Positions 12,640 through 64,000 of a stretch of 64,000 bases of DNA are shown piece after piece; the stretch's first letter is position 1; each line of letters opens with the position of its first letter. The notes beneath the pieces were generated by a model that did no database searches, was not told the DNA's origin, and worked only from the letters and a program-made list of their open reading frames with translations. Made by a program: the position numbers and the translations under genes. The stretch comes from Candidatus Magasanikiibacteriota bacterium. Its GTDB lineage: Bacteria; Patescibacteriota; Patescibacteriia; Magasanikbacterales; 2-02-FULL-50-9b. Where the stretch lies: contig CAITMK010000004.1 of the NCBI GenBank assembly GCA_903893485.1, positions 431 through 64,430 of the forward strand, in the 5' to 3' direction.

Positions 12640-12668
12640 TTGACAGTTTGGCGCATTTTGACTACCAT
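12640..12668 (+). promoter_or_regulatory. Sigma70-like promoter TTGACA-17-TACCAT.
   Basis: ttgaca, then a 17-nt spacer, then taccat. An AAGGAG Shine-Dalgarno lies 5 nt before the ATG at 12698. Confidence 0.5.
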
Positions 12669-12697
12669 TTGCTAGCACACAGCTGCAAGGAGTCAAC

Positions 12698-13243
12698 ATG
12701 CATCGGATATTGGGTTTACACGCACCAACAAAGCCCGCGAGCGATCGAACGGTTTTTACCGGATACACGGTTTTGCGCAAGGAAAGTGGCCATCTGCGCG
12801 AAATCAAGCCAGGCGATTCGGCGTTTTACGCCGAATGGGATCCGCGGAAAGATTCGCAATTCCCGCCCGTGACCGGCCAAGCTGAGATCGTACGCCCGGC
12901 GGATGGCGTGCGGTTTACACTTGAATTTGCAGTGTTCATTTGCTGGCGCGAGATGTGCTGTCACCAACAAACTATTCTCGGCAAATGGGTGACGCTGTGC
13001 GAAATGCCGCGCGAGGAAATGTTGCGGCAGATTGCTGAGCGTATTCGCGAGACTGCGGCCACGCCCCGATTCGAAAACAACCGTGACACCTTCGTGGAAA
13101 CGGATCGTGGCGGCAATCCACACGGCTTCGTTCAAACGCTTCATCACCAAGCGTTCAAGCAGGCAATCGACGATCGGCTGCAAAACCTTGGCTGCGCCCT
13201 GCTCCACACCGAGGCTGGTCTCAGCTGGAAACCGTTGCCGTAA
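12698..13243 (+). CDS. Hypothetical protein (181 aa) in GC-rich islet 1.
   Basis: Perfect SD AAGGAG. Local GC is about 57% against a ~45% background. The minus ORF 12716..13255 is a shadow frame. Confidence 0.55.
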   Translation: MHRILGLHAPTKPASDRTVFTGYTVLRKESGHLREIKPGDSAFYAEWDPRKDSQFPPVTGQAEIVRPADGVRFTLEFAVFICWREMCCHQQTILGKWVTLCEMPREEMLRQIAERIRETAATPRFENNRDTFVETDRGGNPHGFVQTLHHQAFKQAIDDRLQNLGCALLHTEAGLSWKPLP

Positions 13244-13253
13244 CGTCGGCAAC

Positions 13254-13301
13254 AAAAAACGCGCTCGCGAGGAACAACCCCTCGCGAGCGCGCCATTTTT
13301 T
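13254..13301. terminator. Bidirectional rho-independent terminator.
   Basis: A6, then a 12-bp GC stem gcgctcgcgagg/cctcgcgagcgc, then T6. It sits between the convergent 181-aa gene and ppa. Confidence 0.75.
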
Positions 13302-13303
13302 AT

Positions 13304-13819
13304 TTATGCTTTTGCAACAAAATTTGCCTGACACTGTTTGATGATTTCAAATGCTTTTGCTTTGTCGCCGTAGCCTTCAATTACACAAACCTTTTTTTCG
13401 AGATTTTTGTATGTTGCAAAAAATTCTGAGATTTCTGCTTTGAGGTGTTCGTTTACATCGCCAATATCATTGATGTGTTTAAAGCGTGGATCTGCTTTTG
13501 CAACTGCAATAATTTTTTCATCTTGGCCTTTGTCATCGCTCATGATGAGCACACCAACCGGGCGCACGTCAGCGGTGCAACCAGGAAAAAGTGGATTTGA
13601 AACGAGAACGAGTACATCGAGGGTATCGCCGTCGCCGCCCAAAGTTTCTGGGAAAAAGCCGTAATCGAGTGGGTATACCACCGAGCTAAAAAGTACGCGG
13701 TCGAGTTTGATGGTACCACTTGTTTCGTCAAATTCGTATTTGTTTTGGCTGCCGCGTGGGATTTCGATAACCGCGGTGCATAATTCTGGAGCTTTGCTGC
13801 CAATAGAAAAGTGTGACAT
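13304..13819 (-). CDS. ppa: Inorganic pyrophosphatase.
   Basis: 171 aa. YPLDYGFFPETLGGDGDTLDVLV pyrophosphatase signature. Confidence 0.9.
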   Translation of the reverse strand: MSHFSIGSKAPELCTAVIEIPRGSQNKYEFDETSGTIKLDRVLFSSVVYPLDYGFFPETLGGDGDTLDVLVLVSNPLFPGCTADVRPVGVLIMSDDKGQDEKIIAVAKADPRFKHINDIGDVNEHLKAEISEFFATYKNLEKKVCVIEGYGDKAKAFEIIKQCQANFVAKA

Positions 13820-13871
13820 AGAAAAATATTAGTGGGTGGATTTTAACACAATAAAATCCGTCGTGCAAGCC

Positions 13872-14600
13872 TTATTTTTTCTCAAAAATAACCACGTTTG
13901 CAACGGGGGTGTAGCTGTCGATGCTCTCGGTACCATTCGTACCGTGAACCGCAATTCCTGTTGACGCCCCACCATCTAAATTTATTGCCGTTACAATATG
14001 TGGCTGAAATTCGGCGAGTGCCTGCGAAAATTCGTACAACGAAATTTCTTTTTCATCGGCAATAATAATTACCACATTACCGGCTGCATCAAGCGCAATT
14101 GCAGTGCGACGTGCGATATGTGATGAATCTTTTTCAACCGCAGACTTACCCGCACGAATCAATATTGGATAACTCTGTATTGACTCTGGCGCTTGTAAAA
14201 AATTATTTTGCACCGCATCTTCGATCGTGATCGCACCATTATAAAATAATCCACCGCTTTTATCTTTATCAAATAACCGTTCTGAAATTTTTTTTCCACC
14301 TGATGCAACAAATCCTGCTGGTATAAAATCGATGCCCGCGAAGTAGCCGCCATTCACCACCACCGCTGGCGCAGCAGTAGTCACGGCCGCAACAGTTGAT
14401 GAAGTAACGGCGACGCGCATTGTAACCGCCTGAGATGGAACGCGCACAAATGTAAATGGAATTCCTTGTATTGTTGCGCGTTGGAGTTGAAAAAAATCGT
14501 GAATGCGTGGCTGAGTAGCAGTGTGTGCGAAAAAAATAATTATTCCAAAAATACCAGCACTGAGTACCGCATATGCATATCGCATATTAGCCGCCACCAC
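13872..14600 (-). CDS. Phosphodiester glycosidase family protein (DUF2233/NAGPA-like), membrane-anchored.
   Basis: N-terminal TM helix and an INLDGGASTG motif. Confidence 0.5.
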   Translation of the reverse strand: MVAANMRYAYAVLSAGIFGIIIFFAHTATQPRIHDFFQLQRATIQGIPFTFVRVPSQAVTMRVAVTSSTVAAVTTAAPAVVVNGGYFAGIDFIPAGFVASGGKKISERLFDKDKSGGLFYNGAITIEDAVQNNFLQAPESIQSYPILIRAGKSAVEKDSSHIARRTAIALDAAGNVVIIIADEKEISLYEFSQALAEFQPHIVTAINLDGGASTGIAVHGTNGTESIDSYTPVANVVIFEKK

Positions 14601-15891
14601 TCACGAACATGATGACTGCGGCAGCTCCCATTGCAACAAATGTGGTCCACACCAAAATATTTGATAACCATTTGCTGCGATATTCGCCCATAATTTTTTC
14701 GCTGCGTGCAATTTTAGCAATAAGAAAAACTAATGGCACTGCGGCAACTCCATTAAATACTGCGGTAAAAACTAGCGCTTTAATTGGATCAATCCCGACG
14801 TAGTTAATGAGCAATCCAATGAGGGTTGCAATGGTCACGACTCCATAAAATCCATGCGCACGACGAAATTTTAAATTTAATCCGTCGCGCCAATTTGCGG
14901 CTTCTGCAAATGCGTATGCCGCACTGCCAGATAATACTGGAATACCTAAAAAGCCCAATCCGATTACGCCGGTCGCAAAAATTGCTTTTGCTAAAAATCC
15001 TGCATGTGGAAAGGTGTGCACCAGTGGCTCGAGCGCGCGCGCTGCGTCAGCGGCGGTTGCGACATTGGTCAAGCCATTTTTGTGGAGCACGGTCGCGGCA
15101 ACCACAATAATACACCACGTGGTGATTTCTGAAGCAATCATGCCAACCGCATTGTCAACGCGCAGCAAATGCATAAAACGCTTCGTAATTTTGGGCTTCG
15201 CATTTTTTTGCAACATGTGATGTGCACGTTCTTCTTCGACTTCTTGAGATGCCTGCCAAAAAAACATGTACGGCGAAATTGTGGTGCCAAGCACACCGGT
15301 TATAATGAAAAAGAATTGAAAGTTTAATTCAATGTGCGGCACAAAGGTCGCAATAAAAAGTTCATGCCAATTGTGCTCGACAAGTAAAAAGGTAATGGGG
15401 TATGCGAGAAGCGTCAGCGCCGCATATTTTAAAATGCGTGCATATTTTTTGTACGATAAAAATATCTCGAGCAATAAAATAATTACCGTAAAGCTCAGCG
15501 TCAAAATGGTAAAATTGAGCGGAATAATTAATTGAAGCGCTGCGGCCATCGCCCCGATATCTGCGCCAATATTTATCGTATTCGCAATGAGTACAAGCGA
15601 CACGATCGCGAATAAAACTTTTTTACTATAATATTGACGAATCACGGCAGCGATTCCCTTGCCATTGACCGCACCGATACGCGCAACTGCCTCCTGCACT
15701 GCCATCATAAATGGCAGCATGAGCAGCGCGGTCCATAATTGACCAAACCCAAATTGCGCGCCAGTTTGGGTATAGGTTGCGATACCAGATGGATCGTCGT
15801 CTGCAGCGCCCGTCACGATACCAGGTCCAAACGACGTAAAAAGTTTTTTTGTTTTTGCAAAAATCGAAGGCATACAATTATGTAAAAACAC
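14587..15891 (-). CDS. mntH: NRAMP-family divalent metal cation transporter (MntH-like).
   Basis: GPGIVTGAADDDPSGIATYTQTGAQFGF consensus, about 11 TM helices. Confidence 0.85.
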   Translation of the reverse strand: MFLHNCMPSIFAKTKKLFTSFGPGIVTGAADDDPSGIATYTQTGAQFGFGQLWTALLMLPFMMAVQEAVARIGAVNGKGIAAVIRQYYSKKVLFAIVSLVLIANTINIGADIGAMAAALQLIIPLNFTILTLSFTVIILLLEIFLSYKKYARILKYAALTLLAYPITFLLVEHNWHELFIATFVPHIELNFQFFFIITGVLGTTISPYMFFWQASQEVEEERAHHMLQKNAKPKITKRFMHLLRVDNAVGMIASEITTWCIIVVAATVLHKNGLTNVATAADAARALEPLVHTFPHAGFLAKAIFATGVIGLGFLGIPVLSGSAAYAFAEAANWRDGLNLKFRRAHGFYGVVTIATLIGLLINYVGIDPIKALVFTAVFNGVAAVPLVFLIAKIARSEKIMGEYRSKWLSNILVWTTFVAMGAAAVIMFVSGGG

Positions 15892-15955
15892 TATATCATA
15901 TTTTTTTATTCTTACCTATAAAAATGCGCGGCCCCACTGAAGTGAAGACCGCGAC

Positions 15956-16351
15956 TTAATTGTCGTCATCAAGCGACTGGTAATCCTCCACAAAGACGAT
16001 CGCCCCAAGTGCAAAAAACACCAATGGAAACGCGGTGCAGTATGCGATAGGTGTGTGCCAGAGTGGCGCCACGTGAAACGGATTCAGCGCTGCATGAAAG
16101 GCGTCGAAGCCGTCCGTGCGCGTGGTGCCGACCGCCTCTGCCATCATCTCGCCGAGCGCGCCAAATTTCGGGCTTTGCAAGGCAAACGCTGCGTACAGCA
16201 GTATCGTCAGAATGGCGTAGATCAAAACTTCCCACCAGAGCGAATACCCGTTCCAGTGCAGCGCCGCGGCGACACTGACATATCCGAGCAGCGCGCCTGG
16301 AGCGCGAACGCACAGCATCCGCCACAAAACTTTTCCGATTTTTTCTTTCAT
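15956..16351 (-). CDS. Small hypothetical membrane protein in GC-rich islet 6.
   Basis: About 131 aa from ATG (MKEKIGKV), 3-4 TM helices, GC about 57%. The G9 tract lies immediately 5' of the ATG. The ORF-track start uses an upstream TTG. Confidence 0.4.
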   Translation of the reverse strand: MKEKIGKVLWRMLCVRAPGALLGYVSVAAALHWNGYSLWWEVLIYAILTILLYAAFALQSPKFGALGEMMAEAVGTTRTDGFDAFHAALNPFHVAPLWHTPIAYCTAFPLVFFALGAIVFVEDYQSLDDDN

Positions 16352-16355
16352 GGTT

Positions 16356-16364: not shown

Positions 16365-16377
16365 AAGTTCTGCAAGC

Positions 16378-16406
16378 TTTATACGGCATAAGTGGCTTTT
16401 TGTCAA
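16378..16406 (-). promoter_or_regulatory. Sigma70-like promoter TTGACA-17-TATAAA (minus strand).
   Basis: RC reads ttgaca aaaagccacttatgccg tataaa, about 20 nt upstream of the G9 tract. Confidence 0.5.
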
Positions 16407-21207: not shown

Positions 21208-21720
21208 TCACGGGTCCGATGCAATGGCAGCAAGCATGCGTCGAAACACGCCAAGCGCCTGATCAGGGTTGATCAGAATACCCGGTGGTACACCCGACGC
21301 AAAATTTGTTGGCGGCGACGCAGCGTAGTACCGCCAACCATCAGCATCCCTCCAAATAAGTCGGGCGGGCTCCTTGTAATCTCCCGCTACCTGCAAAGCC
21401 GCGGCCAAGAAAATTGGGCGGGCCAACGGCAGGCCAATGATGACACGCGGAACTTCTATATCATCTGACGGAGCTGCCATGATCACATGACCTTGCTTCA
21501 CGGTGCGCGCGAGCGTGGCCGAAGTGATCCATCCGCCGGGCGGCGTATCTTCTCCTCGGTCAGACCGAAACGACTGAATATGCGCATTCGGCATGATGCG
21601 TTGCATCGCATTCAGAAGCAAGCTGAGCGTTTTGTGAGCAAGCGGCCGGTTCACCATGCTCGGCGATTCCAAGTCGCTCTGCAAATCGGACAATTTCACA
21701 ACGTTATATTTTGTTGACAC
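21208..21720 (-). CDS. Hypothetical protein (170 aa), GC-rich islet 2, GTG start.
   Basis: GGAGG SD 5 nt upstream of GTG. GC about 58%. Confidence 0.45.
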   Translation of the reverse strand: MSTKYNVVKLSDLQSDLESPSMVNRPLAHKTLSLLLNAMQRIMPNAHIQSFRSDRGEDTPPGGWITSATLARTVKQGHVIMAAPSDDIEVPRVIIGLPLARPIFLAAALQVAGDYKEPARLIWRDADGWRYYAASPPTNFASGVPPGILINPDQALGVFRRMLAAIASDP

Positions 21721-21747: not shown

Positions 21748-21776
21748 AATGTATCGAATTACTCATTAAAAGTCAA
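21748..21776 (-). promoter_or_regulatory. Sigma70-like promoter TTGACT-17-TACATT (minus strand).
   Basis: RC reads ttgact tttaatgagtaattcga tacatt, upstream of the 21720 GTG start. Confidence 0.4.
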
Positions 21777-21891
21777 TAAAGCAGCCATACATATTTTATC
21801 CACCAGTTTTCCACCATTGACATTATTTATAATCTGTGGAACCCAGTAGATGACCGCGTTGAAGCGGTCCAACAAAGTACCGGAGGTCATC

Positions 21892-22515
21892 GTGTATTAT
21901 TTGGTCGGCACCATTTCGTTCATGAGTGCGTTTGTGTTGGTTTGTGTTTTTAATAGCTGCACTGCTGAGTGCCCCCACTTGGCCACCGATGCGGCGATTA
22001 GCAATGCCGCCGACGCACCAACACCGCCCGATATCACAATTGCAATCGACAATGATGGCGATGGCGTTTTCCCTCCCGAAGACTGCAACGATCACGACCC
22101 AAACGTGTACCCTGGCGCCTATGAGTATTGCGATTTTCAGGACAATGATTGCGACGGCGAGACTGATGAAACGTGGAAGTCACTTTGGGGTGGTTTGTAC
22201 GGAACTCCCTGTTCAGTTACCGACACGAACGGCTGCGTCTCCGTTGGTCGCTGGGGTTGCGACATGGATCATGATTGGCTCGCGTGCAATGCGTCACCTG
22301 TCGTGGCGCATGTTGAAAAATGCAATGGTGCAGATGATGATTGTGACGGCGTCACGGACAACGGCCAGGGATGGCCGATGATCGGTACTGTCTGCACGAT
22401 TATGGCTGGCACATGCACGGTGCCTGGGCTCTGGGCATGCAGCAGCTACACTGAGATGCCCTACTGCACCGCGGAAGATATTCCGTTTCCAGAAACAACC
22501 TGCCTGGAAAACTAA
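21892..22515 (+). CDS. Secreted/lipoprotein-like cysteine-rich protein with MopE-type putative metal-binding repeats.
   Basis: GTG start after GGAGG. N-terminal hydrophobic segment. Repeats CNDHDPNVYPGAYEYCDFQDNDCDGETDE and CNGADDDCDGVTDNG. GC-rich. Confidence 0.55.
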   Translation: MYYLVGTISFMSAFVLVCVFNSCTAECPHLATDAAISNAADAPTPPDITIAIDNDGDGVFPPEDCNDHDPNVYPGAYEYCDFQDNDCDGETDETWKSLWGGLYGTPCSVTDTNGCVSVGRWGCDMDHDWLACNASPVVAHVEKCNGADDDCDGVTDNGQGWPMIGTVCTIMAGTCTVPGLWACSSYTEMPYCTAEDIPFPETTCLEN

Positions 22516-24101: not shown

Positions 24102-24644
24102 TCAAGCCGCGAGTAGTGTGTTGCCCGTGATCGCCTTAATCTGCTGCGCGAGATTGCCGCCGCCGAAACCAGGCATGCGGCCAAAGAGCTCGACCGCGAA
24201 GGCCTCGTCCACGATCGCCGTGGCGCCAGAAAACGAGAGGATTAAATCGTAATCTCTTGTTTTCAACCGCACCGCACCCGGCCACTTGTCTTCGGCTTCG
24301 CACCGGCTCTCAAAGCTGGTCAGGTGCTTGTGGTTGCTGGCAAGCCGCACCGCCTTTTCAATGGCAAGTGCAGCATACCGGGCATATTTTTCTGGCACTT
24401 CAACTTCGCCAACCTGCATGAGCAGGATGAGCCGCGGCGCGACGCCGTTGCCGTGGGAATACATGGCGTCGTAGAGCGCAAGATAACCGCCACTTCGCCA
24501 AGCCATTCCCTCGTAATTGCGCCCCAGGAATTCTTCGAACAAACATTCCGCCAAAAACGGCAGATTCATCTCTCGAAGCCTTCCATGCAAACGCAATTGA
24601 CGCCCTCGTTCTGGTGAAATCGAACCTCTCATTATAGCCCCCAT
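24102..24644 (-). CDS. Hypothetical protein (about 155-180 aa), GC-rich islet 3. Start uncertain.
   Basis: GC about 60%, coding-like composition. The probable start is an internal Met (MNLPFLAECLF) after GAAGG. Confidence 0.4.
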   Translation of the reverse strand: MGAIMRGSISPERGRQLRLHGRLREMNLPFLAECLFEEFLGRNYEGMAWRSGGYLALYDAMYSHGNGVAPRLILLMQVGEVEVPEKYARYAALAIEKAVRLASNHKHLTSFESRCEAEDKWPGAVRLKTRDYDLILSFSGATAIVDEAFAVELFGRMPGFGGGNLAQQIKAITGNTLLAA

Positions 24645-24743
24645 CCGTAGCGGAAATTATCGCTCGGTTACTAAACAGGCTACTCAAAAAAAAATCGTTT
24701 GTCAATACTCGACAATTGAGGCCACATGCGCTATCCTAATCAT

Positions 24744-30599: not shown

Positions 30600-31253
30600 T
30601 TAGCTCTTTGCCTGCGACAACGCAGCACCGAGCGACTGCTGAAACGCCTGACTCGTATCAGTTGCACCTGACACAATATCGACGTTTGCATTCTGCGCTG
30701 AAATAGCTTCTGAGATCAAATACGGCATTGCATAATTATTGATACTAATCGAATGGTTGCGATCATTTGGATATTGCAAAAAAGCAACGTTCGAAATTTT
30801 CCCCCCAGATATGGTGACGCGAACTTGGACAATGCCATAATACGCATCCGCCTGACTACCCGTATATTGCCCGTCTGTGTACATCCCCTTTGGTTTTGGT
30901 GGCACAATAGGTGCTGGTGGAGGAGGTGGCGCTTTAGCAGGTACCACCGGCTTTGGTGGAGCCGCTACCACGGGTGTTTTAACAACCTTTGGGACTGGTG
31001 CTGAAATTGGTGTTGGGACTACCGGTACTGGAATTGGCGTTGGCGCTGGCGCCGGTTGTGGCGCTTGTACTGGAGCTGGTATTGGGGTCGGCGTTGGTGC
31101 TAGCACTGGCGTTGGCTGCGGCGCAGTGGCAACTACAACAGGAGCGGCCGAATGAACGATTGATACACTAAGATCTTGGCTTAATCCGCCTTGATACGCA
31201 GCATATGCGGCGAAACTTAAAATTATTACGGATGCGTAAATGAATTTCTTCAT
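30600..31253 (-). CDS. Secreted FMN-binding domain protein with a long Pro/Thr/Val-rich linker.
   Basis: Signal peptide, about 80-aa PT-rich linker, C-terminal FMN_bind domain with flavinylation motif VDIVSGATDTS. Confidence 0.7.
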   Translation of the reverse strand: MKKFIYASVIILSFAAYAAYQGGLSQDLSVSIVHSAAPVVVATAPQPTPVLAPTPTPIPAPVQAPQPAPAPTPIPVPVVPTPISAPVPKVVKTPVVAAPPKPVVPAKAPPPPPAPIVPPKPKGMYTDGQYTGSQADAYYGIVQVRVTISGGKISNVAFLQYPNDRNHSISINNYAMPYLISEAISAQNANVDIVSGATDTSQAFQQSLGAALSQAKS

Positions 31254-41952: not shown

Positions 41953-42537
41953 TTAATTTTTATCCGAAAGCAGCCAATCCAAATTCATTAGTTCCCTCTG
42001 AACTTTCAAAGTGTTCCCATGTCGCAACAATCCTCGATATGACTGTATTCGACCCTCAACACCCTGAACCAGTATCCGCCGAAACATTCGCTGTTTTGAC
42101 GCTCTACGCAATATGCGATGTTTTGGAAAATTAACCCATCCTAAAAAATCAACGCCCAAAACGATTGATTGAAGATAAATTTTATCTGGGTGAATTACCA
42201 GCCCAAGCTCCGACTGCAAAAAATTATCCATCAACCGAAGTTGTCCCTCTAGCCATGCACGGTCATGTGACATCACAACGAAATCATCGGCGTATCGAAT
42301 ATAAAACCGCGCCTTCAGTTTATGCTTCACAAACTGATCGAACACATTCATATACACGTTGGTGAATAGCTGTGATGTTAAGTTACCAAGTGGTAAACCT
42401 ACACCCGCAGATGTCTCAAAACTTTTTATAATATGTTCCAGCAGATCCATGATCCGTTCATCAGGAATATAGCACCTTAAAATCTTAATGAGCCGTGCGT
42501 GATCGATGTTTGCGAAAAACTTCCGAATATCACATTT
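41953..42537 (-). pseudogene. 5'-truncated reverse transcriptase with DGR-type motif 4.
   Basis: Minus frame reads VLKCDIRKFFANIDH (motif 3), GLPLGNLTSQLFTNVYMNVFD ([ILV]GxxxSQ is DGR-specific), IRYADDFVV (motif 5), FLGW (motif 7). No motifs 1-2 in any frame upstream. The ORF-track N-terminal 45 aa are an out-of-frame readthrough of the neighbouring GC-rich gene. Confidence 0.7.
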
Positions 42538-43177
42538 CAAAACCGGGCTGTTTCCATAAAGAGTTGCGAACGGCGAGAAACCGATAGTTGCCGTTCCAGC
42601 TGTTGCTCCACCAGAACAGGTCCAGCTTCCGCTCGTCACCGTTCCGGTAGAGGTACGGGGCACGGCGGTCGTCACCGTGACCCCAGATCGAACCCAAGCC
42701 CATGATCGCGTACTTGCGCTGTTCGTCGGGATTTTTCACGGCGTAGGCCAGGAGTTCGCGCAACGTCGCAGGACGGAAGCCATCTTTGTCCATCGCCGAA
42801 ACGACGTCCTTGGACGACATGTCCTTGCCGAAGTGGTAGAGCTTGACCTGGAGGTTCTGCTCGCCCGTCTCATGCGCCTGGTTCGGGAAGTTCTTCTCGA
42901 CGATGTCGTCGTACTTCCAGTCGAACGCGGCGGCCGTGATGGCGTCGATCAGCTTGAGCGCGTAATCGACCGAAAGCACTTCGCAGCCGTCGGGAATGGT
43001 GATCCCGCGCTCAGCCATGATCTGCTTGGCGATCTCAGTGGCCAGCTTCTTGTCCTTGAGGATGCGCAGGATGTCTTCATCGTTGCCGCCCATGTCGAGC
43101 ACGGCGTTGACGAGCACCTTCACGACCTCGAACATTTTGCCAAAGTTCTTGAGCAATTCACTTACAGGACGAGCCAT
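42530..43177 (-). CDS. Hypothetical protein (215 aa), GC-rich islet 4, occupying the position of the RT 5' half.
   Basis: GAGAGG SD. GC about 58% from about 42545 to 43270 with an abrupt drop at both edges. The + strand ORF 42677..43348 is a shadow. Confidence 0.5.
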   Translation of the reverse strand: MARPVSELLKNFGKMFEVVKVLVNAVLDMGGNDEDILRILKDKKLATEIAKQIMAERGITIPDGCEVLSVDYALKLIDAITAAAFDWKYDDIVEKNFPNQAHETGEQNLQVKLYHFGKDMSSKDVVSAMDKDGFRPATLRELLAYAVKNPDEQRKYAIMGLGSIWGHGDDRRAPYLYRNGDERKLDLFWWSNSWNGNYRFLAVRNSLWKQPGFEM

Positions 43178-43341
43178 TTTGAGCCTCTCACTTCTGTGTG
43201 GCCTACCGCTTATCCCGAGTCACCCGACCCAAGACCTACGGCTTACCAACTGCCAACCGATTTGGCTGCAGTAATTAAATTTGCTCTGTTGAGAGAAAAC
43301 CTAGTTATTGCGGCTAAATTAGGTACTGTTATTGACTATCA

Positions 43342-43370
43342 TTTATAGCACGATTTGGTGATTTTGTCAA
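43342..43370 (-). promoter_or_regulatory. Sigma70-like promoter TTGACA-17-TATAAA (minus strand).
   Basis: RC reads ttgaca aaatcaccaaatcgtgc tataaa. It lies in AT-rich DNA between tRNA-Trp and the GC-rich cassette, about 145-nt leader. Confidence 0.5.
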
Positions 43371-43438: not shown

Positions 43439-43439
43439 G

Positions 43440-43510
43440 CACGGGATGAGGGAATCGAACCCCCGCCAAAGGTTTTGGAGACCTTCGTTCTACCATTAAA
43501 CTAATCCCGC
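43440..43510 (-). tRNA. tRNA-Trp (anticodon CCA).
   Basis: RC folds as GCGGGAT-TA-GTTT/AATGGTA/GAAC-G-AAGGT/CTCCAAA/ACCTT-TGGC-GGGGG/TTCGATT/CCCTC-ATCCCGT-G. 3' CCA is not encoded. Confidence 0.85.
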
Positions 43511-57271: not shown

Positions 57272-57861
57272 AAAATAGTATTAATCGCTTTTTCATGGCG
57301 CGAATCAAGCACTTCGTAAATAAAACGATCCATGAGTTGGCGGCGTTCTTCGAATTCGCGCAGCGGCATAATCGCATAACGCACAGCGATTCCATGATCG
57401 TGTTCAAATTCATTCATGATTTTTGTTAGCTCGTGTGCAGGCACCGTACCAACGATGAGCATGTCGACTGAAGTATTTGCATTCGTAAATGATCCGGTAA
57501 AAAGCAAAAGTTTAATATCACCCAAACCAACAATTTGATTACGCAAAGAATCTTCGCCAAGCACATGTGATTTTAAAAGTAGCGCGCGCAATTCTGGATA
57601 CAGTGGTGACGCCTCGTTCAATCGATAATATTTTCGTTTTGCTTCGTGTGCATCTTCGGCCTCGCCGGTAAGATTCTCTGGCGCATCAACCGCAGCAATA
57701 ATTCCTGAATTGGTTAAATGCGTCAGTTCACGGCGAACTGCGTTAATCTGTGTATCTGCCAAACGGGTCAATTCGCGCACAAAAAAATGCCTTTGCGGTT
57801 CACGATAAAAAAGGCGGAGAAGTTTGACGCGAGTTCTGGAGCCAAAAAGATGGTCAAGCAT
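57268..57861 (-). CDS. Winged-helix plus nucleotidyltransferase-fold hypothetical regulator.
   Basis: 197 aa. N-terminal HTH (FVRELTRLADTQINAVRRELTHL), C-terminal NTase-like region. Confidence 0.35.
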   Translation of the reverse strand: MLDHLFGSRTRVKLLRLFYREPQRHFFVRELTRLADTQINAVRRELTHLTNSGIIAAVDAPENLTGEAEDAHEAKRKYYRLNEASPLYPELRALLLKSHVLGEDSLRNQIVGLGDIKLLLFTGSFTNANTSVDMLIVGTVPAHELTKIMNEFEHDHGIAVRYAIMPLREFEERRQLMDRFIYEVLDSRHEKAINTIL

Positions 57862-57904
57862 GTGTATCTATAGTATACTTGGGGCAAGCCCCCTGGTCAA
57901 TGGT

Positions 57905-59968
57905 ATGAATGAACGACTTTCCCTTCAAATTAACGATTTTTTAATCGAGGGACGTGACGAAGAAAAATCGCACGTCATCCTAGAAATCGCAAAACCCGTG
58001 CCCGAGGAACTCCTCACACACGGGCATTTTATTGCTTTGGCTGAAATGGCCGGCGCAACCCCAAAAACAATCAACATGGTTCGCGCCTGGGTTGAATTTG
58101 CGATTGATGCATTTTACGGATCCGTTCCAAGCAACCTTGAACAACATTTTGAAGATTTGCTGCAGCGTTTAAATACACAAAGTTCATTATATTTAAAACA
58201 ACACCCCGAAACACAGCTGCACATGGCGATTTTGGCCATTCGTGGTACCGATGTGCTTCTTTCATTTCATGGCGCACCAAGTGTGCTTCTTTTATATCGC
58301 AAACAAGATTCGTGGCATTCCATGAATTTAGCTGAAGCCGATGCAGCGCCTGCTGCCCTGTTTTCGAACGTGCTTACGGGCACACTGCGCCCCGGCGATC
58401 GTATGTGTCTTGCATCAGGCCGTGTCATCGAATTTTTCTCGGCCGATCGCATTGCAAAACTGTGCGAAACAAAATCAACTGCCGAAGTAGCCGAGCACAT
58501 GGCACGGATTTTAAACGATCTTGCAGCCGACGTTTCTTTTGCAGGCGCGTGTATTGAGTTGGAAAAAATTATCGAACCAGAACCCGAAGCGGAATTACCC
58601 GCACGCGTTGCTGAAGCGCCACAAAAAAAATCAATTCATTCGATGAAAGAGTTGTTGCAAAAAACTACATCCACCGAATCTCTTTTATCGCCGCCGGTTA
58701 TTTCAATTTCAAAAGATAAAGTGGTAACCGATACTTTGCGCATTGTGCAGCGTGGTGCGGTTGCGGTTGGACGCGTCACGGTTGGTGCAATTCAAAGTAC
58801 TGCCACATTTACCAAACGTAGCACGCCGCATGTTTCACGCGTCTGTCGTTCTACCTGGCAACATGTTCATAAGTTTTTAGACGCGCGCGCTCCAAACTCG
58901 CGCAAAAATATTCAAATTGGCGTTGGCGCAATTGCCGCAATTTTACTTATTGGTGGTGGTGTTTTATTTTATCGGAGCCACGCCGCGGGTATTGCCGCCG
59001 ATCGAGCAGCACTTGCAGAAATTCAAAATGGTGTACAAGCAGCAGATGGTGCAATTACGTTTCAAAATTCAAGCCGCGCAATCGAATTAATTACCACCGC
59101 GCGCAGCCAATTTAATTTACTTTCAAAAAATGCACAGTCCGGCACTGATGGTGTTGCACTTGAGGCGTCGATCACGAACGAAGAATTAAAAATTTATCGC
59201 GTAACACCCGTTGCATTTGAGCAAGTTGCGCCGCATACCGACGCAACACAAATTGCCGTTGTGCGTTCAACACCATTTACACTTTCTGTGGATGGCGCGC
59301 TCAGCACCATGCGCAACGGCGCGCTCACCGCGGCAATTTCAGTGCCTGCAAAAACCAACATGTTGTTCGATCCTGATGGCGATCGATTATTATTCCCTGG
59401 CTTAGACGGCTCAATTAAGGCGGTTGCATCGCGCACCATGGTGGCGACTGATTTAAAAATTGATCATCCTGCAGAGCAAACACATTTTGATGCAATGCAA
59501 ATTTATTCTGGGCGCTTGTACGTGTACGACAGTGCGCTACAAAAAATTTATCGCTACGACAAAACGCCAACTGGTTTTGGCAATGGTACTTCGTGGATTA
59601 AAGATAGTGGCAAACCGATGGGCGTAACCGCGCTACAAGCCGACACCTCGCTGTGGATGCTCACCAACGTTGGCGCACTTTTGAAATACACTGCCGGTAA
59701 GGCGCAACTTTTTCACCCAAGCGGCGCGGTGCCCGAATTGCAACACATCGATTCGTTTCAACTTGGTGGCGGCTCAAATAATTTGTATATTTTGGATCAC
59801 GCAAATAATCGCATTGCGGTTTTGGATCGCAGTGGCGCGCTGGTTAAGCAATATCGCTTCCCTGCAGGCAGCAATTTGCGCGCGTTTGATATTGATGATA
59901 AAGAAACGACGATTTTTGGGATTTCGGATGATGGAAAGTTAATTAAATTTGCAGTTTCGGCGCAGTAA
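57905..59968 (+). CDS. Large hypothetical membrane protein. Cytoplasmic N-domain, single TM, extracellular beta-propeller (NHL/YVTN-like) domain.
   Basis: TM helix IQIGVGAIAAILLIGGGVLFY. C-terminal repeats such as NNLYILDHANNRIAVLD. Start at MNERL avoids overlap with the upstream gene. Confidence 0.5.
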   Translation: MNERLSLQINDFLIEGRDEEKSHVILEIAKPVPEELLTHGHFIALAEMAGATPKTINMVRAWVEFAIDAFYGSVPSNLEQHFEDLLQRLNTQSSLYLKQHPETQLHMAILAIRGTDVLLSFHGAPSVLLLYRKQDSWHSMNLAEADAAPAALFSNVLTGTLRPGDRMCLASGRVIEFFSADRIAKLCETKSTAEVAEHMARILNDLAADVSFAGACIELEKIIEPEPEAELPARVAEAPQKKSIHSMKELLQKTTSTESLLSPPVISISKDKVVTDTLRIVQRGAVAVGRVTVGAIQSTATFTKRSTPHVSRVCRSTWQHVHKFLDARAPNSRKNIQIGVGAIAAILLIGGGVLFYRSHAAGIAADRAALAEIQNGVQAADGAITFQNSSRAIELITTARSQFNLLSKNAQSGTDGVALEASITNEELKIYRVTPVAFEQVAPHTDATQIAVVRSTPFTLSVDGALSTMRNGALTAAISVPAKTNMLFDPDGDRLLFPGLDGSIKAVASRTMVATDLKIDHPAEQTHFDAMQIYSGRLYVYDSALQKIYRYDKTPTGFGNGTSWIKDSGKPMGVTALQADTSLWMLTNVGALLKYTAGKAQLFHPSGAVPELQHIDSFQLGGGSNNLYILDHANNRIAVLDRSGALVKQYRFPAGSNLRAFDIDDKETTIFGISDDGKLIKFAVSAQ

Positions 59969-59970
59969 TT

Positions 59971-60107
59971 TTTCTTTTATCCTCTGAGGAGACGCGTCAG
60001 TTTCCCCGGCGGGAAACTGCGCTCGGCCTCGGCGCGGCTCGTCTTGGCTTCGCCAAGACTCCGGCCCGCCGCGCCTGCGGATGCTCCTCAGCGAACAAAA
60101 GAAAAAC
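59971..60107 (+). repeat. Structured GC-rich palindromic repeat, copy A.
   Basis: Flanking IR tttcttttat..ctgaggag / ctcctcag..aaaagaaaaac. Core hairpins cagtttccc-cggc-gggaaactg and gtcttggc-ttc-gccaagac. About 91% identical to copy B. Confidence 0.8.
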
Positions 60108-60199: not shown

Positions 60200-60964
60200 T
60201 CATTTAACCGATTCCATCGACTTGTCTTTATTATTGTATAATTTTCTAATCAACTTTCCAATTTCCATTCTCATTTCATTTGTAATCCCAACTGTTGACT
60301 GGAGATTGTTGCTCCATGCATAAATCTTAATTATTTTGGTTGATAGTGACAAATCAAATTCATAAATGTCACAAGTCTTTTTTGCAACCAGTAGTTTTTC
60401 ATGCCTGATCGGTGTCGGCTTAAAATAGTTTTTAAAAATCTCTGTTGCTTCTTTGCCATTTATTAACAAAATTTCAACCCTTTCTTCTATAAGCTGCCTC
60501 TCCAAAAAGATAATATTACTTTGGATAAGCTGTTTTTTTGTTAAATAATCTAAACTTCTCCAAATTGGATCTGTCGCCCATTGAATAATATCTAAATGGC
60601 AGGCCGTACCTGTATAATAAGAAACAGAAAAACCTTTAAGAATATTGTTTTCTAATTGGTCGAACCATTTTTTATACGGATTATTTTGGAAATACTTTAA
60701 ACAAGTGTCAAATACTTTTTCAGCTTGTGCCTGTGTTAAACTTGATAAACTGTTTGCATTAAGAGAACTTAATGTTTCAAGCCTTCTTTGTTTTTCGACT
60801 AATTCTTTGCCGTCTTTTTGAAACTCATTTTTGCTTGGATTTATTCCAAGCGTTGCAACGGTTGCGTTTTTAATATTTCCAAAAAACACAATCGGAGTCG
60901 ACCCACCTACAATAAATGAATTGTTTGCATTTGTCCTAATTCTTAATTCTGTGATTTTTTTCAT
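60200..60964 (-). CDS. AT-rich hypothetical protein (254 aa), possible UDG-superfamily fold.
   Basis: About 33% GC. FFGNIKNATVATLGINPSKNEFQKDGKELV aligns to UDG family-4/MUG motif A (vFGEGnpdAklmivGEgPGeeED.tG.PFv, GINPG in MUG). Bracketed by inverted repeat copies A and C. Confidence 0.45.
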   Translation of the reverse strand: MKKITELRIRTNANNSFIVGGSTPIVFFGNIKNATVATLGINPSKNEFQKDGKELVEKQRRLETLSSLNANSLSSLTQAQAEKVFDTCLKYFQNNPYKKWFDQLENNILKGFSVSYYTGTACHLDIIQWATDPIWRSLDYLTKKQLIQSNIIFLERQLIEERVEILLINGKEATEIFKNYFKPTPIRHEKLLVAKKTCDIYEFDLSLSTKIIKIYAWSNNLQSTVGITNEMRMEIGKLIRKLYNNKDKSMESVK

Positions 60965-61176
60965 AATTTATTCAAGAATGAAGAAGAGGTTGGGTCCACA
61001 TGCAGCTCGCAATATTACCTTCTTACCATACTGCTATAGCCTTGTAGAAGACTTTTTATTTGCTCTGTCTCGGTTGATTTTGTAATTACTTCCCCGTAGC
61101 CGCAGTCTATCATATGTTATCCGTATAATACAAAAAGGAAATAAGCCTCCCTGAAGGATTTTTATTTTGAGGTTCA

Positions 61177-61318
61177 TTTTTCTCTTTTGTTTTTTTCGGA
61201 GATATCCGGAGGCGCGGCGGGCTGGTGTCTTGCCGAAGGCAAGACGAGCCGAGCCGGGGTTAAGCGCAAAATCGCGCTGGCGATTTTGACGCGGCTCCGA
61301 AAAAAACAAAAGAGAAAA
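61177..61318 (-). repeat. Structured GC-rich palindromic repeat, copy C, opposite orientation to A and B.
   Basis: Perfect 24-bp terminal IR ttttctcttttgtttttttcggag / ctccgaaaaaaacaaaagagaaaa. RC core retains the ggag-cgcgtca start. Hairpins caaaatcgc-cagc-gcgattttg and gtcttgcc-ttc-ggcaagac covary with A and B. Confidence 0.8.
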
Positions 61319-61379
61319 TTCGTAGCGCAAAACAAAAAACCGCCCTTTCGAGCGGCCTTTTTGTTTCGGAAAAGAAAAA

Positions 61380-61781
61380 TTATTTAACAGCTACCTTAGC
61401 ACCTGCTTCTTCCAATTTCTTTTTCAATTCTTCTGCTTCTGCTTTGCCAACTGCTTCCTTAACAGCCTTTGGAGCTGCGTCTACGAGGCCTTTAGCTTCT
61501 GCGAGACCCAAACCGGTTACTTCGCGAACTACTTTAATAACACCGATTTTGTTTGCACCTGCTTCGAGGAGTTCAACAGTAAATTCTGTTTTTTCTTCTG
61601 CTGCAGCTGCTGGACCTGCTGCTGGACCTGCCATCATCATGGCTGGAGCTGCTGCAGATACGCCGTAGTGATCTTCAAGAACTTTAACAAGTTCTGAAAG
61701 GTCGAGAACTGAGAGCTTGTCGATTGATTCGATCAAACCAGCAAATTTTGCTGGGATTTCTTTCTTTGTTTCGTCTGACAT
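61380..61781 (-). CDS. rplL: 50S ribosomal protein L7/L12.
   Basis: 133 aa with an Ala/Pro hinge and C-terminal [17 protein letters not shown]...[10 protein letters not shown]. Confidence 0.95.
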
Positions 61782-61792
61782 ATATAATTAGA

Positions 61793-62320
61793 TTAAGCTT
61801 GAGCTTTTTTTTCTTCGATTGCGTGAAGCGCGGTAACAAAACCACGAGTAACGCCAGCAAGTGTACCCACGAGGCCAGACAATGGCGCATTGATAACGCC
61901 AACGAGCTGTCCGAGGAGCTGCTGTTTGGTTGGAAGTGCGGCGAGTGCTTTCACACCTGCTGCGTCAATGAATTTACCCTCGAGCAAACCGCCCAAGATT
62001 TGAATCGTTGTTACTTCTTTACCGATGTTTGCAATAAGTGTAGCGGCGCTGATTTCATCGTTCATGCCAAATGCGACTGCAACGTTGCCGTCCATAGCTT
62101 TTGCGTTGATTTCATAGCCTGCTGCTTTTGCTGCCAGTGTGATGAGTGTCTTTTTTGCCACTACATAATCAACACCAACTTTTTCTGCACCGCGACGTAC
62201 TTTTGATACATCTTTTACGGTGACGCCTTTGTAGTTTACAAAAACCACGGCTTTTGATTTCTTAAAAGCTTCGGTCAGTTCTGCAAGGGCGACTTCTTTT
62301 TGTGAGCGTGTTTTTGCCAT
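61793..62320 (-). CDS. rplJ: 50S ribosomal protein L10.
   Basis: Start at MAKTRSQKEVALAEL. The upstream 31 codons of the ORF-track call are likely leader. Confidence 0.9.
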   Translation of the reverse strand: MAKTRSQKEVALAELTEAFKKSKAVVFVNYKGVTVKDVSKVRRGAEKVGVDYVVAKKTLITLAAKAAGYEINAKAMDGNVAVAFGMNDEISAATLIANIGKEVTTIQILGGLLEGKFIDAAGVKALAALPTKQQLLGQLVGVINAPLSGLVGTLAGVTRGFVTALHAIEEKKAQA

Positions 62321-62470
62321 ACAAAAAATTTGCGGCTTAACCGCAAACGTGAGATCACCCCGACCTTTACCTAAAAGTGTAGAGTGGATGGCCTCGGCGG
62401 GACTTATGGGCATTTTTTGGCGCCCAGCCTGCTGTCTGCGGTAGTGAGGACATATTACCGAATTAAGTTG
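62321..62470 (-). promoter_or_regulatory. Probable rplJ (L10) leader / autoregulatory 5' UTR.
   Basis: About 150-nt structured untranslated region immediately upstream of rplJ (ggccatccactctacactttt...gtcggggtgatctcacgtttgcggttaagccgcaaa). By analogy with L10-leader elements, not sequence-verified. Confidence 0.3.
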
Positions 62471-62477
62471 CTTGTGT

Positions 62478-62620
62478 CAAGTCTGAAAGTTCCCTCTGGC
62501 ACACGTGTCAGTTTGCCCGGCGGCAAACTGCACTCGGCCTCGGCGCGGGCTCGTCTTGGCTGCGCCAAGACACCGGCCCGCCGCGCCTGCGGATGGTGCC
62601 AGAGGGAACTTTCAGACTTG
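62478..62620 (+). repeat. Structured GC-rich palindromic repeat, copy B.
   Basis: Perfect 25-bp terminal IR caagtctgaaagttccctctggcac / gtgccagagggaactttcagacttg. Core hairpins cagtttgcc-cggc-ggcaaactg and gtcttggc-tgc-gccaagac. Confidence 0.85.
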
Positions 62621-62652
62621 AGTAACTCAATCCGGTAATTAACCACAAAATA

Positions 62653-62681
62653 TTGACAAAATGGCTAAAATGTGATATATT
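62653..62681 (+). promoter_or_regulatory. Near-consensus sigma70 promoter TTGACA-17-TATATT.
   Basis: ttgaca aaatggctaaaatgtga tatatt, 75 nt upstream of the 62757 ATG. GGAG SD at 62747-62750. Confidence 0.6.
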
Positions 62682-62756
62682 GCTACGTTGTGCGATTAAG
62701 CGGTTATGCACGACCTGAGCAACAAAACCGCGAGAAATTGAAAATTGGAGGCTTTA

Positions 62757-63128
62757 ATGGATACGAGTACTACAACTACGGCGCCCTGGCATAGCCCGGA
62801 CGGAAAGGCGGATCGCATCAAGGCGATCTGGGGCGACAATGTCCCCGATTACCTCTGGTACGCGGTTTTGAACCCGCTCACGAAGGAGCAGCAGCTCGAA
62901 ATCATCGCGCTCGTCGAAAACGAGATGTTCGCGGCCGATAACCGTCCTGATTTCGGCAGCATCGAGTGGCATTTTGGCAAAGTGCCCGCTACCGAAGGCA
63001 AAACGGAACTTCGCGTGCGCGGCGCCGACAAGCTCCTGCTTTCCCTGGAAATCAAAGGAGTGACGCTGCCGCTGCATGTCGTCGGCCACAAAAGACAGCC
63101 CGCGACGCGCATCGACTTCACGGCGTAG
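62757..63128 (+). CDS. Hypothetical protein (about 123 aa), GC-rich islet 5.
   Basis: ATG start MDTSTTTTAPW after GGAG. GC about 60%. Minus-strand ORFs 62754..63455 and 62849..63145 are shadows. Confidence 0.55.
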   Translation: MDTSTTTTAPWHSPDGKADRIKAIWGDNVPDYLWYAVLNPLTKEQQLEIIALVENEMFAADNRPDFGSIEWHFGKVPATEGKTELRVRGADKLLLSLEIKGVTLPLHVVGHKRQPATRIDFTA

Positions 63129-63158
63129 CGCGCCCCGCCCGGCAATCACGCCGACCAA

Positions 63159-63203
63159 CCCCATCCCGCTTCGGTCATCGACTGGAGTGGGGTGTTTTAT
63201 TTT
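63159..63203 (+). terminator. Probable rho-independent terminator.
   Basis: ccccatcc...ggagtgggg stem followed by tgttttatttt. Confidence 0.45.
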
Positions 63204-63604
63204 ACAAAAATTTAAATAAAAAAACACCTCATACTCCTGGGCCCAGGAATATGAGGCATGGTGTGCGATCAGCTTGGCTGAGGTTTGTCGGAGGGTTTCC
63301 CTTTCCGAATACGCGACACCGTCTGTTTCGTGGAGGTATTTGCACCCCGCTGTTGCATATTGAGCTGCTTGTGGCGGGCAGAAACTTGCGCTCCTGCTGA
63401 GAGTGCGCAAAGGGTACCCAGTTAACCACAGCACTGTTTCGTGCAGCCCATACAACCGAACCCACCGACAAGGAGTTTAACCCTGTCATCGCAACTGCAC
63501 GTCCCACAAGGGGTTCGATGCACTGCGCGATTTGCCCGCACGGACACCATCGGTGGTTTTTCAGACTGTTAAAATAGTACGTTACTTTTGGGATAGCGTC
63601 AAGA

Positions 63605-63633
63605 TTGACAAATACCCTATTCTGTTGTAGTGT
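63605..63633 (+). promoter_or_regulatory. Sigma70-like promoter TTGACA-17-TAGTGT.
   Basis: ttgaca aataccctattctgttg tagtgt. AGGAG SD before the ATG at 63674. Confidence 0.5.
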
Positions 63634-63673
63634 TTGGGCGACCGAATCGTTCCGACACAAACAGGAGAACACC

Positions 63674-64000
63674 ATGAAACGTAACTGGTCCGTGATCAAT
63701 CTGCTCGGAGACGACGAGCTGTGGAAAAGACTGGCTTTTGAGCTCGACCCCAAGAATCTTGCGGAGCTGCAGCGACAGTACCCCATGTTTTTCATGGAAG
63801 GCGCGGACGACGGGCCGCGGCGGTTTCCGCTGTCGCAGCTGCGCGCACTGGCAAGAACAGACCCGAAAATGCCATCGAACTGCTCCATCCTTGTTCGCGA
63901 GAAAAAAACAGCGAAATACCCCAAGCGTGTTACCGAGTATCCGCACGTTTCGTATCGCGGCGATATTGAGGGCATGCGTCCACCCTACGACCTTGTTGAC
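63674..64000 (+). CDS. Hypothetical protein, 5' part only. The gene runs off the window end.
   Basis: MKRNWSVINLLGDDELWKRLAFELDPKNLAELQRQYPMFFMEGADDG... is open to the window end. Good SD. GC-rich. The minus ORFs over this span are compositional shadows. Confidence 0.5.
   Translation, partial: MKRNWSVINLLGDDELWKRLAFELDPKNLAELQRQYPMFFMEGADDGPRRFPLSQLRALARTDPKMPSNCSILVREKKTAKYPKRVTEYPHVSYRGDIEGMRPPYDLVD

Follow-up and report, generated by a model that had tools for sequence, protein, structure and literature searches.

Candidate accessory modules among GC-rich single-gene islets of a Patescibacteria genome, one of them holding a decayed diversity-generating retroelement

A 64,000-nucleotide (nt) stretch of a Candidatus Magasanikiibacteriota genome (contig CAITMK010000004.1 of assembly GCA_903893485.1, positions 431 to 64,430; here called the window) contains six GC-rich islets, scattered among housekeeping genes, whose eight short genes we designate ISL1, ISL2, ISL3a, ISL3b, ISL4, ISL5, ISL6a, and ISL6b. 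We lean toward the interpretation that these islets are self-contained accessory modules of a flexible pool extending across the candidate phyla radiation (CPR, or Patescibacteria) and that their GC-rich gene bodies are an intrinsic and maintained property. Each module would consist of one short open reading frame (ORF) equipped with a Shine-Dalgarno sequence, a sigma70-type promoter of its own, and usually an intrinsic terminator; such modules would be exchanged among Patescibacteria and inserted between housekeeping genes, with the promoter belonging to the module rather than to the host DNA; and the GC excess would be kept up by a gene-specific force, namely, synonymous-site selection or biased repair/conversion, instead of being the unameliorated signature of a donor. 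The evidence comes from the two islet families that can be traced in other genomes, those of ISL5 and ISL4, and ISL1, ISL2, ISL3a, ISL3b, ISL6a, and ISL6b would be modules of the same kind.

Composition and promoters of the islets

The mean GC content of the window is 45.3%. When it was scanned in 200-nt sliding windows, all six segments that an initial annotation of the sequence had listed as GC rich were reproduced as peaks of 0.55 to 0.65 against the mean of 0.453, with the eight short genes inside them; seven of these lie wholly in the window, and ISL6b runs past its end. ORFs were mapped by program, and their start codons were refined by eye. The GC content at third codon positions (GC3) of the islet genes ranges from 0.585 to 0.81 and does not overlap that of the 56 backbone genes (0.392 ± 0.046 [standard deviation]; maximum, 0.484), giving z-scores of 4.2 to 9.0 (Mann-Whitney p = 3e-6). 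The GC contents of the first and second positions (GC1 and GC2) are raised as well, and the preferred codons differ for nearly all amino acids (e.g., ATC, 0.62 versus 0.22, and AAG, 0.54 versus 0.19, in islet and backbone genes, respectively). Thus, the atypical composition and codon usage by which genomic islands are recognized are both present. Highly expressed native genes have a low GC3 (L7/L12, 0.278; L10, 0.393), as does the 700-amino-acid (aa) gene upstream of hrcA, presumed from its position only to be dnaK (0.351); the islets are distinct from such genes in GC3 and codon usage, and the resemblance that the initial annotation had named as evidence against foreign origin was not found.

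The motif TTGACW-N17-TANNNT occurs 10 times in the window, where 0.86 occurrences are expected (~12-fold). A TTGAC[AT]-N17-TAnnn[TA] sequence lies at most 220 nt upstream of seven of the eight islet genes, as opposed to 3 of the 56 backbone genes (Fisher p = 1.5e-6), and five of the islet promoters start with TTGACAAA. The islet genes are probably transcribed from these predicted promoters. A near-consensus promoter and a good Shine-Dalgarno sequence had originally been ascribed to every islet; the promoters stand for seven genes, and ISL3b has neither a consensus −35 element nor a clear Shine-Dalgarno sequence upstream. With the exception of ISL3b, start codons and Shine-Dalgarno sequences are correctly placed, and GC1 > GC2 < GC3, the usual pattern, holds in the frames proposed. 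A comparison of the upstream regions revealed nothing in common beyond the promoter hexamers, and a shared mobile-element end at the islets was rejected on this basis. Within the window, no paralogy was found among the islet proteins; searches of PHROGs, NCBIfam, and PADLOC recovered no islet match apart from the reverse transcriptase (RT) described below. Likewise, no islet matched Rfam at gathering or E ≤ 1 thresholds, and known noncoding RNAs were rejected as their content.

Islets 1 to 4 and 6 recur on contigs of 99 to 100% identity in independent ENA assemblies, seven recorded contigs encode exactly the ISL5 protein, and exact-protein look-ups for the islet genes led in all cases to the same strain at 99 to 100% identity. 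Because identical or 99.9%-identical contigs are found in independent assemblies, the islet junctions are not assembly artifacts or chimeras.

ISL5 is the target gene of a decayed diversity-generating retroelement

The ISL5 gene (42530 to 43177, minus strand; 215 aa; GC3, 0.81) is the variable-protein (target) gene of a diversity-generating retroelement (DGR). Its 24 homologues have a hypervariable C terminus ending in ...WWSxxWxGxxRFLAVRKS, and over the last ~45 residues of the alignment, variable positions are interleaved with invariant W, G, F, L, and V residues, a pattern that may reflect a C-type-lectin-like region; a profile of the family had no PDB sequence match below E = 0.1. Directly downstream lies an RT ORF (41953 to 42544, minus strand; GC3, ~0.43) that begins only at about motif A (RVT_1, 1.4e-15; phrog_1423, 1.4e-60). 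On two other contigs, L086 (a Magasanikbacteria-like genome) and L087, an ISL5 homologue is followed by a template repeat (TR), a bAvd gene (PF22296), and a full RT gene. In both, the TR is 84 to 87% identical to the variable repeat (VR) of the target gene, and it is at adenines of the TR that the two differ (L086, 21 positions; L087, 25), as is characteristic of DGRs. The ISL5 homologues thus share the cassette of target, TR, bAvd, and RT, together with adenine-specific differences, with known DGRs such as that of Bordetella phage BPP-1 (mtd/avd/TR/brt) and those of CPR bacteria.

Unlike canonical DGRs, the copy in the window has no avd gene, no separate TR, a truncated RT, and a VR fused to the TR. 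The RT remnant starts at about codon 105, codons 1 to 104 being absent, and is 95% identical in protein sequence to the intact RT of L086; avd is absent from the window, with the deleted interval corresponding to positions 4024 to 4824 of L086; and a repeat search of the window recovered no second repeat copy that could be the TR. The 3′ 150 nt of ISL5 form a VR::TR hybrid repeat (42545 to 42694, minus strand), with 16 mismatches to the L086 TR and 35 to the L086 VR. The 5′ part of this hybrid carries A-to-N differences; its 3′ part, like its flank, matches the TR flank of L086 without any difference. From there, the sequence continues through the TR flank and passes abruptly to codon 105 of the RT. 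ISL5 has lost its original stop codon and ends with 8 codons that read into the RT remnant. VR-TR recombination accompanied by a deletion of ~0.8 kb would account for the loss of the target stop codon, avd, and RT codons 1 to 104. As judged from its sequence, this DGR appears to be dead and can no longer diversify its target.

The ISL5 cassette was transferred together with its promoter

The sequence of the window is 91% identical to that of L086 from 43460 to 42560 and 96% identical from 42544 to 41880, and the similarity spans from the end of a tRNA-Trp gene (43439 to 43510, minus strand) to 72 nt past the RT stop codon. Within it lie the ISL5 promoter (TTGACA-N17-TATAAA with a TGn element; 43342 to 43370, minus strand) and a 165-nt 5′ leader (43178 to 43341, minus strand) that is ~99% identical to that of L086; in the target gene, 6 of 82 four-fold sites differ. 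For the same pair of genomes, the isoleucyl-tRNA synthetase (IleRS) proteins are 69% identical and the adjacent DUF1189 proteins only 30% identical. The contrast between a DNA identity of 91 to 96% and these values shows that ISL5 was acquired recently by horizontal transfer, the cassette entering whole (promoter, leader, target, TR, avd, and RT) beside tRNA-Trp, which is its left boundary in the window and its left neighbor in both genomes. DGR horizontal transfer and atypical GC content have already been documented (PMC5758913). In the five loci whose context was examined, the ISL5 homologues lie on low-to-mid-GC contigs of small genomes.

The initial annotation had regarded the islet promoters as native to the symbiont. 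For ISL5, this does not hold, because the promoter and leader travelled within the transferred DNA. The ACCTTGACAAAA...TGCTATAA promoter of ISL5 also precedes the homologue of L087, where the cassette starts with ACCTTGACAAAA...TGCTATAAT and the target protein is only 39% identical to ISL5. In the ISL4 family, 10 of 23 loci have a TTGACA-type promoter 63 to 107 nt ahead of the start codon. According to the annotation, homologues within the same CPR lineage at syntenic positions would have argued against foreign cargo; ISL5 comes close to this situation, with a Magasanikbacteria-like partner and the tRNA-Trp gene as a common neighbor. In viral contigs, the ISL4 family found no match and the ISL5 family a single one, so that a phage origin of the two families is not supported.

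Two further observations concern this cassette. The leader (L086 positions 2752 to 2915) is better conserved than the coding region (~99% versus 91%), and its 3′ 125 nt can still be aligned in a third contig, L088 (~6056 to 6180), where the protein is 65% identical; this suggests that it may act as a functional 5′ untranslated region. In L086 (2423 to 2650), 22 nt from the 3′ end of a complete tRNA gene are duplicated ~130 nt further on, directly before the DGR cassette, which looks like the att-type scar of an integrative element; the DNA between the tRNA gene and the duplicate is similar, on the opposite strand, to a portion of a different tRNA.

ISL4 belongs to a large family with a DUF336/GlcG-like fold

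The ISL4 gene (24102 to 24632, minus strand; 176 aa; GC3, 0.633; alternative ATG at 24644) is preceded by a TTGACA-N17-TAGCCT promoter (24677 to 24705, minus strand). Its family has at least 337 cluster representatives at E ≤ 1e-3, mostly of 145 to 200 aa, with the motif EKAxRL..HxSSWQSR..KWGGAIR..SFSGLPELADEA. Neither ISL4 nor 43 of its relatives matched Pfam, and a PDB sequence search with the ISL4 profile recovered nothing below E = 0.1, with two chance-level matches at E values of 0.6 to 0.7. A structure model of ISL4 (predicted local distance difference test [pLDDT] score, 93) was compared to the PDB with Foldseek, and the ten best matches were all of the DUF336 type (probability, 0.91 to 1.0), among them EfgA (6bws), ORFY (2a2l), an HbpS-like protein (4nkp), PduO-C (5cx7), and NahX (9jth), with target-normalized TM-scores of 0.54 to 0.63 and a sequence identity of 9 to 14%. 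On the strength of this model, ISL4 is predicted to be a divergent DUF336/GlcG-fold protein of a large uncharacterized family. It shares the heme- or ligand-binding fold of the DUF336, GlcG, HbpS, EfgA, and PduO-C proteins (PF03928) and, unlike them, has its own motif, an extra N-terminal helical pair, and no Pfam or PDB sequence match. At each locus examined, the family has different gene neighbors, among them SecY, PilB, Ddl, a tRNA-binding protein, and saccharopine dehydrogenase.

A GC excess persists within the ISL5 and ISL4 families

Members of the two traceable families have gene bodies that are GC richer than their flanks in other low-GC genomes as well. ISL5 homologues have GC3 values of 0.82, 0.66, 0.845, and 0.74 on contigs of 47, 37, 54, and 43% GC, respectively. 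The RT and Avd genes of the same cassettes have values of 0.38 and 0.49 in L086 and 0.20 and 0.21 in L087, and in the other two loci, the homologue's own RT/Avd or neighboring genes have values of ~0.58 and 0.37 to 0.39. Such a contrast within the cassette (target, 0.66 to 0.85; RT/Avd, 0.20 to 0.49) is not described in two DGR surveys (PMC5758913 and PMC8144416). Distant members of the family differ at 60 to 65% of four-fold sites, with C/G exchanges as the commonest or second-commonest class; synonymous sites are saturated and yet remain G or C. The window and L087 are 51% identical in the RT and 39% identical in the target; since RT and target have thus diverged jointly, a GC-rich donor of the cassette does not explain why an AT-rich RT stands beside a GC-rich target.

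For the ISL4 family, composition and promoters were analyzed in 23 of 27 metagenome loci carrying the family, which were scanned with alignment A3 because alignment A2 was too diverse. These contigs have GC contents of 33 to 53%. In 20 of the 23 loci, the GC3 of the family member exceeds that of the flanking ORFs, by 0.13 on average and by up to 0.44, and the excess is limited to the gene body (positions +100 to +450). In the subclade L102/L107/L111, GC3 is 0.56 to 0.65 despite differences at 49 to 63% of four-fold sites and a host GC3 of 0.31 to 0.34.

The mRNAs of the islets fold no better relative to dinucleotide shuffles than those of control genes (mean z, −0.41 versus −0.45; p = 0.43), and selection for mRNA structure as the cause of the GC excess is not supported. 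The exception is ISL4, whose mRNA, unlike those of the other islets and 14 control genes, folds far better than its shuffles (minimum free energy, −193.6 kcal/mol per 450 nt; z = −4.7). In L103 (1 to 420) and L108 (2140 to 2625 and 2919 to 3752), the ISL4-family gene has other genes of elevated GC3 (+0.24 to +0.27) next to it, one of them coding for an HlyD-like protein; therefore, small clusters of GC-rich genes exist.

The core regulator gene hrcA and alternative explanations

The initial list of islets was sound as far as it went and incomplete, in that hrcA (1368 to 2072, minus strand), which lies outside the range considered, is a ninth GC-rich gene with the same type of promoter. The unit (1368 to 2137, minus strand) comprises hrcA (GC3, 0.62), a TTGACA-N17-TATACT promoter, and a perfect CIRCE (controlling inverted repeat of chaperone expression) operator (2097 to 2123). 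In the same region (883 to 2137, minus strand), grpE is GC elevated to a lesser degree (0.47). The other islet promoters have no CIRCE operator; the one at hrcA is the only one. A cause linked to expression or selection would explain the hrcA signature no less readily than mobility would.

According to the initial annotation, the islet genes had been captured repeatedly from a high-GC host or neighbor (e.g., Actinobacteria or Myxococcota) and set under strong native promoters of the symbiont. We regard this as quite improbable. It would suit a GC3 and codon usage far from both the backbone and the highly expressed native genes; a raised GC1 and GC2, as expected after a long stay in a GC-rich genome; the finding that ISL1 is an ORFan, which is compatible with an unsampled donor; and the PF11617 motif of ISL3b, which is common in high-GC Myxococcota. 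However, no homologue from a high-GC organism was recovered for ISL1, ISL4, or ISL5, the three searched, and the relatives found lie on contigs of 33 to 54% GC, in which both traceable families are GC elevated at saturated synonymous divergence. Moreover, the promoter and leader of ISL5 lie within the transferred DNA, the partner genome is Magasanikbacteria-like, the cassette includes an AT-rich RT, the RT/Avd GC3 of 0.20 in L087 is incompatible with a GC-rich donor, and ISL1, ISL3a, and ISL6a found no match in the phage or plasmid collections. The GC excess is a standing one in two families and, within intact DGRs, coexists with an AT-rich RT and Avd; acquisition on a single occasion from a GC-rich donor is insufficient to explain this. 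What survives of the proposed foreign acquisition is a composition foreign to the backbone and the transfer of ISL5; the high-GC donor and the native promoters are not supported by the islets that can be traced, and one or another of ISL2, ISL3a, ISL3b, ISL6a, and ISL6b may still derive from a host. It is rather unlikely that the islet genes are instead vertically inherited residents, with a GC content raised by an expression-linked gene-specific force or by local GC-biased repair or conversion and with only incidental mobility. The core regulator hrcA, with its CIRCE operator, the same GC3, and the same promoter type, speaks for this explanation, as do the GC3 that persists at saturated four-fold sites in two families of low-GC genomes, the restriction of the excess to the gene body, and the strong association with consensus promoters. 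The directly observed transfer of ISL5, the nonsyntenic positions of the ISL4-family genes, the low GC3 of L7/L12, L10, and the presumed dnaK, the ordinary folding of the islet mRNAs other than that of ISL4, and the ISL4 subclades that are not GC rich count against it.

We tentatively entertain, as a possible if unlikely refinement, that accessory promoter-ORF-terminator modules, including DGR targets and the DUF336-fold family, are actively held 20 to 45 GC3 points above their hosts and retroelement partners by a force that has not been described before. Finally, the islets might hold no protein genes at all and be structured noncoding RNAs or artifacts of assembly or contamination, an explanation that we consider highly improbable and largely refuted. 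Several islets have full-length ORFs on both strands, gene callers differ on the strand of islet 6, and ~340 nt (63225 to 63565) combine the lack of a convincing ORF with a promoter-like site and a terminator. Against this stand the absence of Rfam matches, the well-placed Shine-Dalgarno sequences and start codons with the GC1 > GC2 < GC3 pattern, the ISL4 model with its pLDDT score of 93, the large ISL4 and ISL5 protein families, the ISL6b variants (two third-position changes and one in-frame indel), and the identical junctions in independent assemblies.

Several results weigh against accessory modules of a CPR-wide pool, which nevertheless remains the interpretation we favor. Domain and repeat searches recovered no integrase, transposase, or flanking direct repeat at any islet in the window. 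A word-seeded search of 5.8 billion proteins found no relative of ISL1, whose membership in the pool is putative, and the searches of large protein databases covered three of the eight proteins (ISL1, ISL4, and ISL5). By IleRS identity, the window is closest to three Candidatus Magasanikbacteria metagenome-assembled genomes (L006 to L008; 73 to 74%, versus ~50% or less for other Patescibacteria), and these three nearest species-level genomes show almost no synteny around IleRS; the remaining contigs that match the islets are of the same strain at 99 to 100% identity and include no close sister genome. The ISL4-family loci (L091 to L117) are metagenome contigs without taxonomic assignment. Some subclades of that family have a host-like GC3 of 0.28 to 0.41, so that the excess is not universal, and the core regulator hrcA shares both the composition and the promoter type of the islets.

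Relationship to known mobile elements and implications

The islets resemble tRNA-adjacent genomic islands and islets in their atypical composition and sharp boundaries and in that one of them abuts tRNA-Trp in two genomes. They differ in their small size (0.4 to 1.6 kb, with one or two genes), in the absence of an integrase, transposase, or flanking repeats from the window, in that nearly all of them bring their own consensus promoter, and in being GC rich. Acquired genes and ORFans are usually AT rich. With integron gene cassettes, they have in common single promoter-proximal ORFs of unknown function and a mobile accessory pool; unlike such cassettes, they show no attC-like repeats, integrase, or array, nearly every one has its own promoter and most a terminator, and they are scattered among housekeeping genes. 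What goes beyond known elements (the apparently dead DGR, the new family with a DUF336 fold, and several ORFans) is the GC excess at the level of families.

Atypical GC content is routinely read as a sign of foreign DNA. Here, a reading as host-derived DNA would have misled, because the gene carries its promoter along, the exchange was with another CPR genome, and the excess persists in two unrelated families across many low-GC genomes, even within a single DGR cassette with an AT-rich RT and Avd. If a gene-specific force indeed acts, the compositional detection of horizontal gene transfer in CPR genomes would need recalibration, DGR target genes would be under a new constraint, and GC-rich islets in Patescibacteria would mark a functional class of genes rather than foreign ancestry. 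The window further appears to document the death of a DGR by VR-TR recombination and then deletion of avd and the 5′ end of the RT gene.

The remaining islet genes

ISL1 (12698 to 13243, plus strand; GC3, 0.615) is an ORFan of 181 aa with an AAGGAG Shine-Dalgarno sequence and a TTGACA-N17-TACCAT promoter (12640 to 12668, plus strand). A tblastn search of the plasmid collection recovered no match to it, and its single-sequence AlphaFold model has an unusable pLDDT score of 37. The bidirectional intrinsic terminator that the initial annotation had placed behind it is real, lying between ISL1 and a pyrophosphatase gene on both strands (13258 to 13294) with 13 to 17 pairs. ISL2 (15956 to 16351, minus strand; 131 aa; GC3, 0.667), behind a TTGACA-N17-TATAAA promoter (16378 to 16406, minus strand), is probably a membrane protein, given its hydrophobic sequence. 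In one metagenome, an Nramp gene (L002/L119, corresponding to 14587 to 15891 of the window) is called as 235 plus 181 aa instead of 428 aa, reflecting either a frameshift variant or a sequencing error.

ISL3a (21208 to 21720, minus strand; 170 aa; GC3, 0.585) has a GTG start codon after GGAGGA and a TTGACT-N17-TACATT promoter (21748 to 21776, minus strand). ISL3b (21850 to 22515, plus strand; 221 aa; GC3, 0.599) codes for a Cys-rich protein with an N-terminal hydrophobic anchor, of which two stretches match the MopE-type metal-binding motif PF11617 (E = 1.8e-13; 50.9 bits versus a cutoff of 27). ISL6a (62757 to 63128, plus strand; 123 aa; GC3, 0.742) follows a GGAGG Shine-Dalgarno sequence and a TTGACA-N17-TATATT promoter with a TG element (62653 to 62681, plus strand). 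ISL6b (63674 to 64000, plus strand; GC3, 0.657), which has a TTGACA-N17-TAGTGT promoter (63605 to 63633, plus strand), is represented in the window by the first 109 of its 174 codons, the full length of 174 aa having been read from contig L123. ISL3a, ISL6a, and ISL6b had no match in Pfam, PADLOC, or the PDB (cutoff, E = 0.1), and for ISL3a and ISL6a, PHROGs, NCBIfam, and tblastn searches of the phage collection also recovered nothing. The 90% identity clusters of ISL3a, ISL6a, and ISL6b contain this strain only, and no islet protein other than ISL4 and ISL5 had a tblastn match in 1.5 Mb of fetched loci.

Near-full-length antisense ORFs are present also in ISL1, ISL2, and ISL5, and public gene calls for this strain place antisense ORFs of 136 aa (62754 to 63164, minus strand) and 248 aa (63229 to 63975, minus strand) over ISL6a and ISL6b. 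Such long antisense ORFs arise in the islets because A-ending codons are avoided. Coding on the plus strand is supported by two strain variants of ISL6b, whose differences from the window are an in-frame 3-nt deletion and two substitutions that fall on third codon positions when read on that strand.

Other GC peaks and minor observations

The initial annotation had treated the whole segment from 62700 to the end of the window as gene bearing, which does not hold for the stretch from 63165 to 63600, where no convincing ORF was found. Within it, between ISL6a and ISL6b, a GC-rich region (63225 to 63565, minus strand) likewise without a convincing ORF has a fold z-score of −3.2 and is bracketed on the minus strand by a promoter-like TTGACG-N17-TACTAT sequence (63602 to 63574) and a 16-pair terminator (63259 to 63224); a small RNA of ~340 nt may be encoded here. 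Between 63522 and 63618, there is a cluster of five strain substitutions.

The GC peaks at 59.9 to 60.2 kb and 62.35 to 62.7 kb are copies of a structured repeat rather than genes. This GC-rich repeat of ~100 to 145 nt, which has no Rfam match, occurs in three copies (59969 to 60082, plus strand; 61204 to 61317, minus strand; and 62477 to 62621, plus strand), located just after a 714-aa gene (57824 to 59968), ~60 nt downstream of rplL, and upstream of the rplJ promoter. It is predicted to form an outer stem with two inner hairpins, in which 16 of 44 pairs stay paired via changes on both sides, and the third copy has perfect 26-nt inverted arms. Inverted copies, with 114-nt arms that are 76% complementary, flank an AT-rich gene (60200 to 60964, minus strand; 254 aa; GC, 0.31; GC3, 0.28) that has no Pfam or PADLOC match and, its composition deviating in the opposite direction to that of the islets, may also have been acquired.

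A further peak (30776 to 31225) is due to tandem Gly-rich repeats (GGTGCTGG...) inside the gene for an FMN-binding protein with a GC3 of 0.39; it is not an islet, because its GC content results from amino acid composition. Finally, the ribosomal protein L10 leader has a match below threshold (62313 to 62459, minus strand; 33.5 bits versus a gathering threshold of 44; E = 0.12) that lies just upstream of, and overlaps, the start of rplJ.

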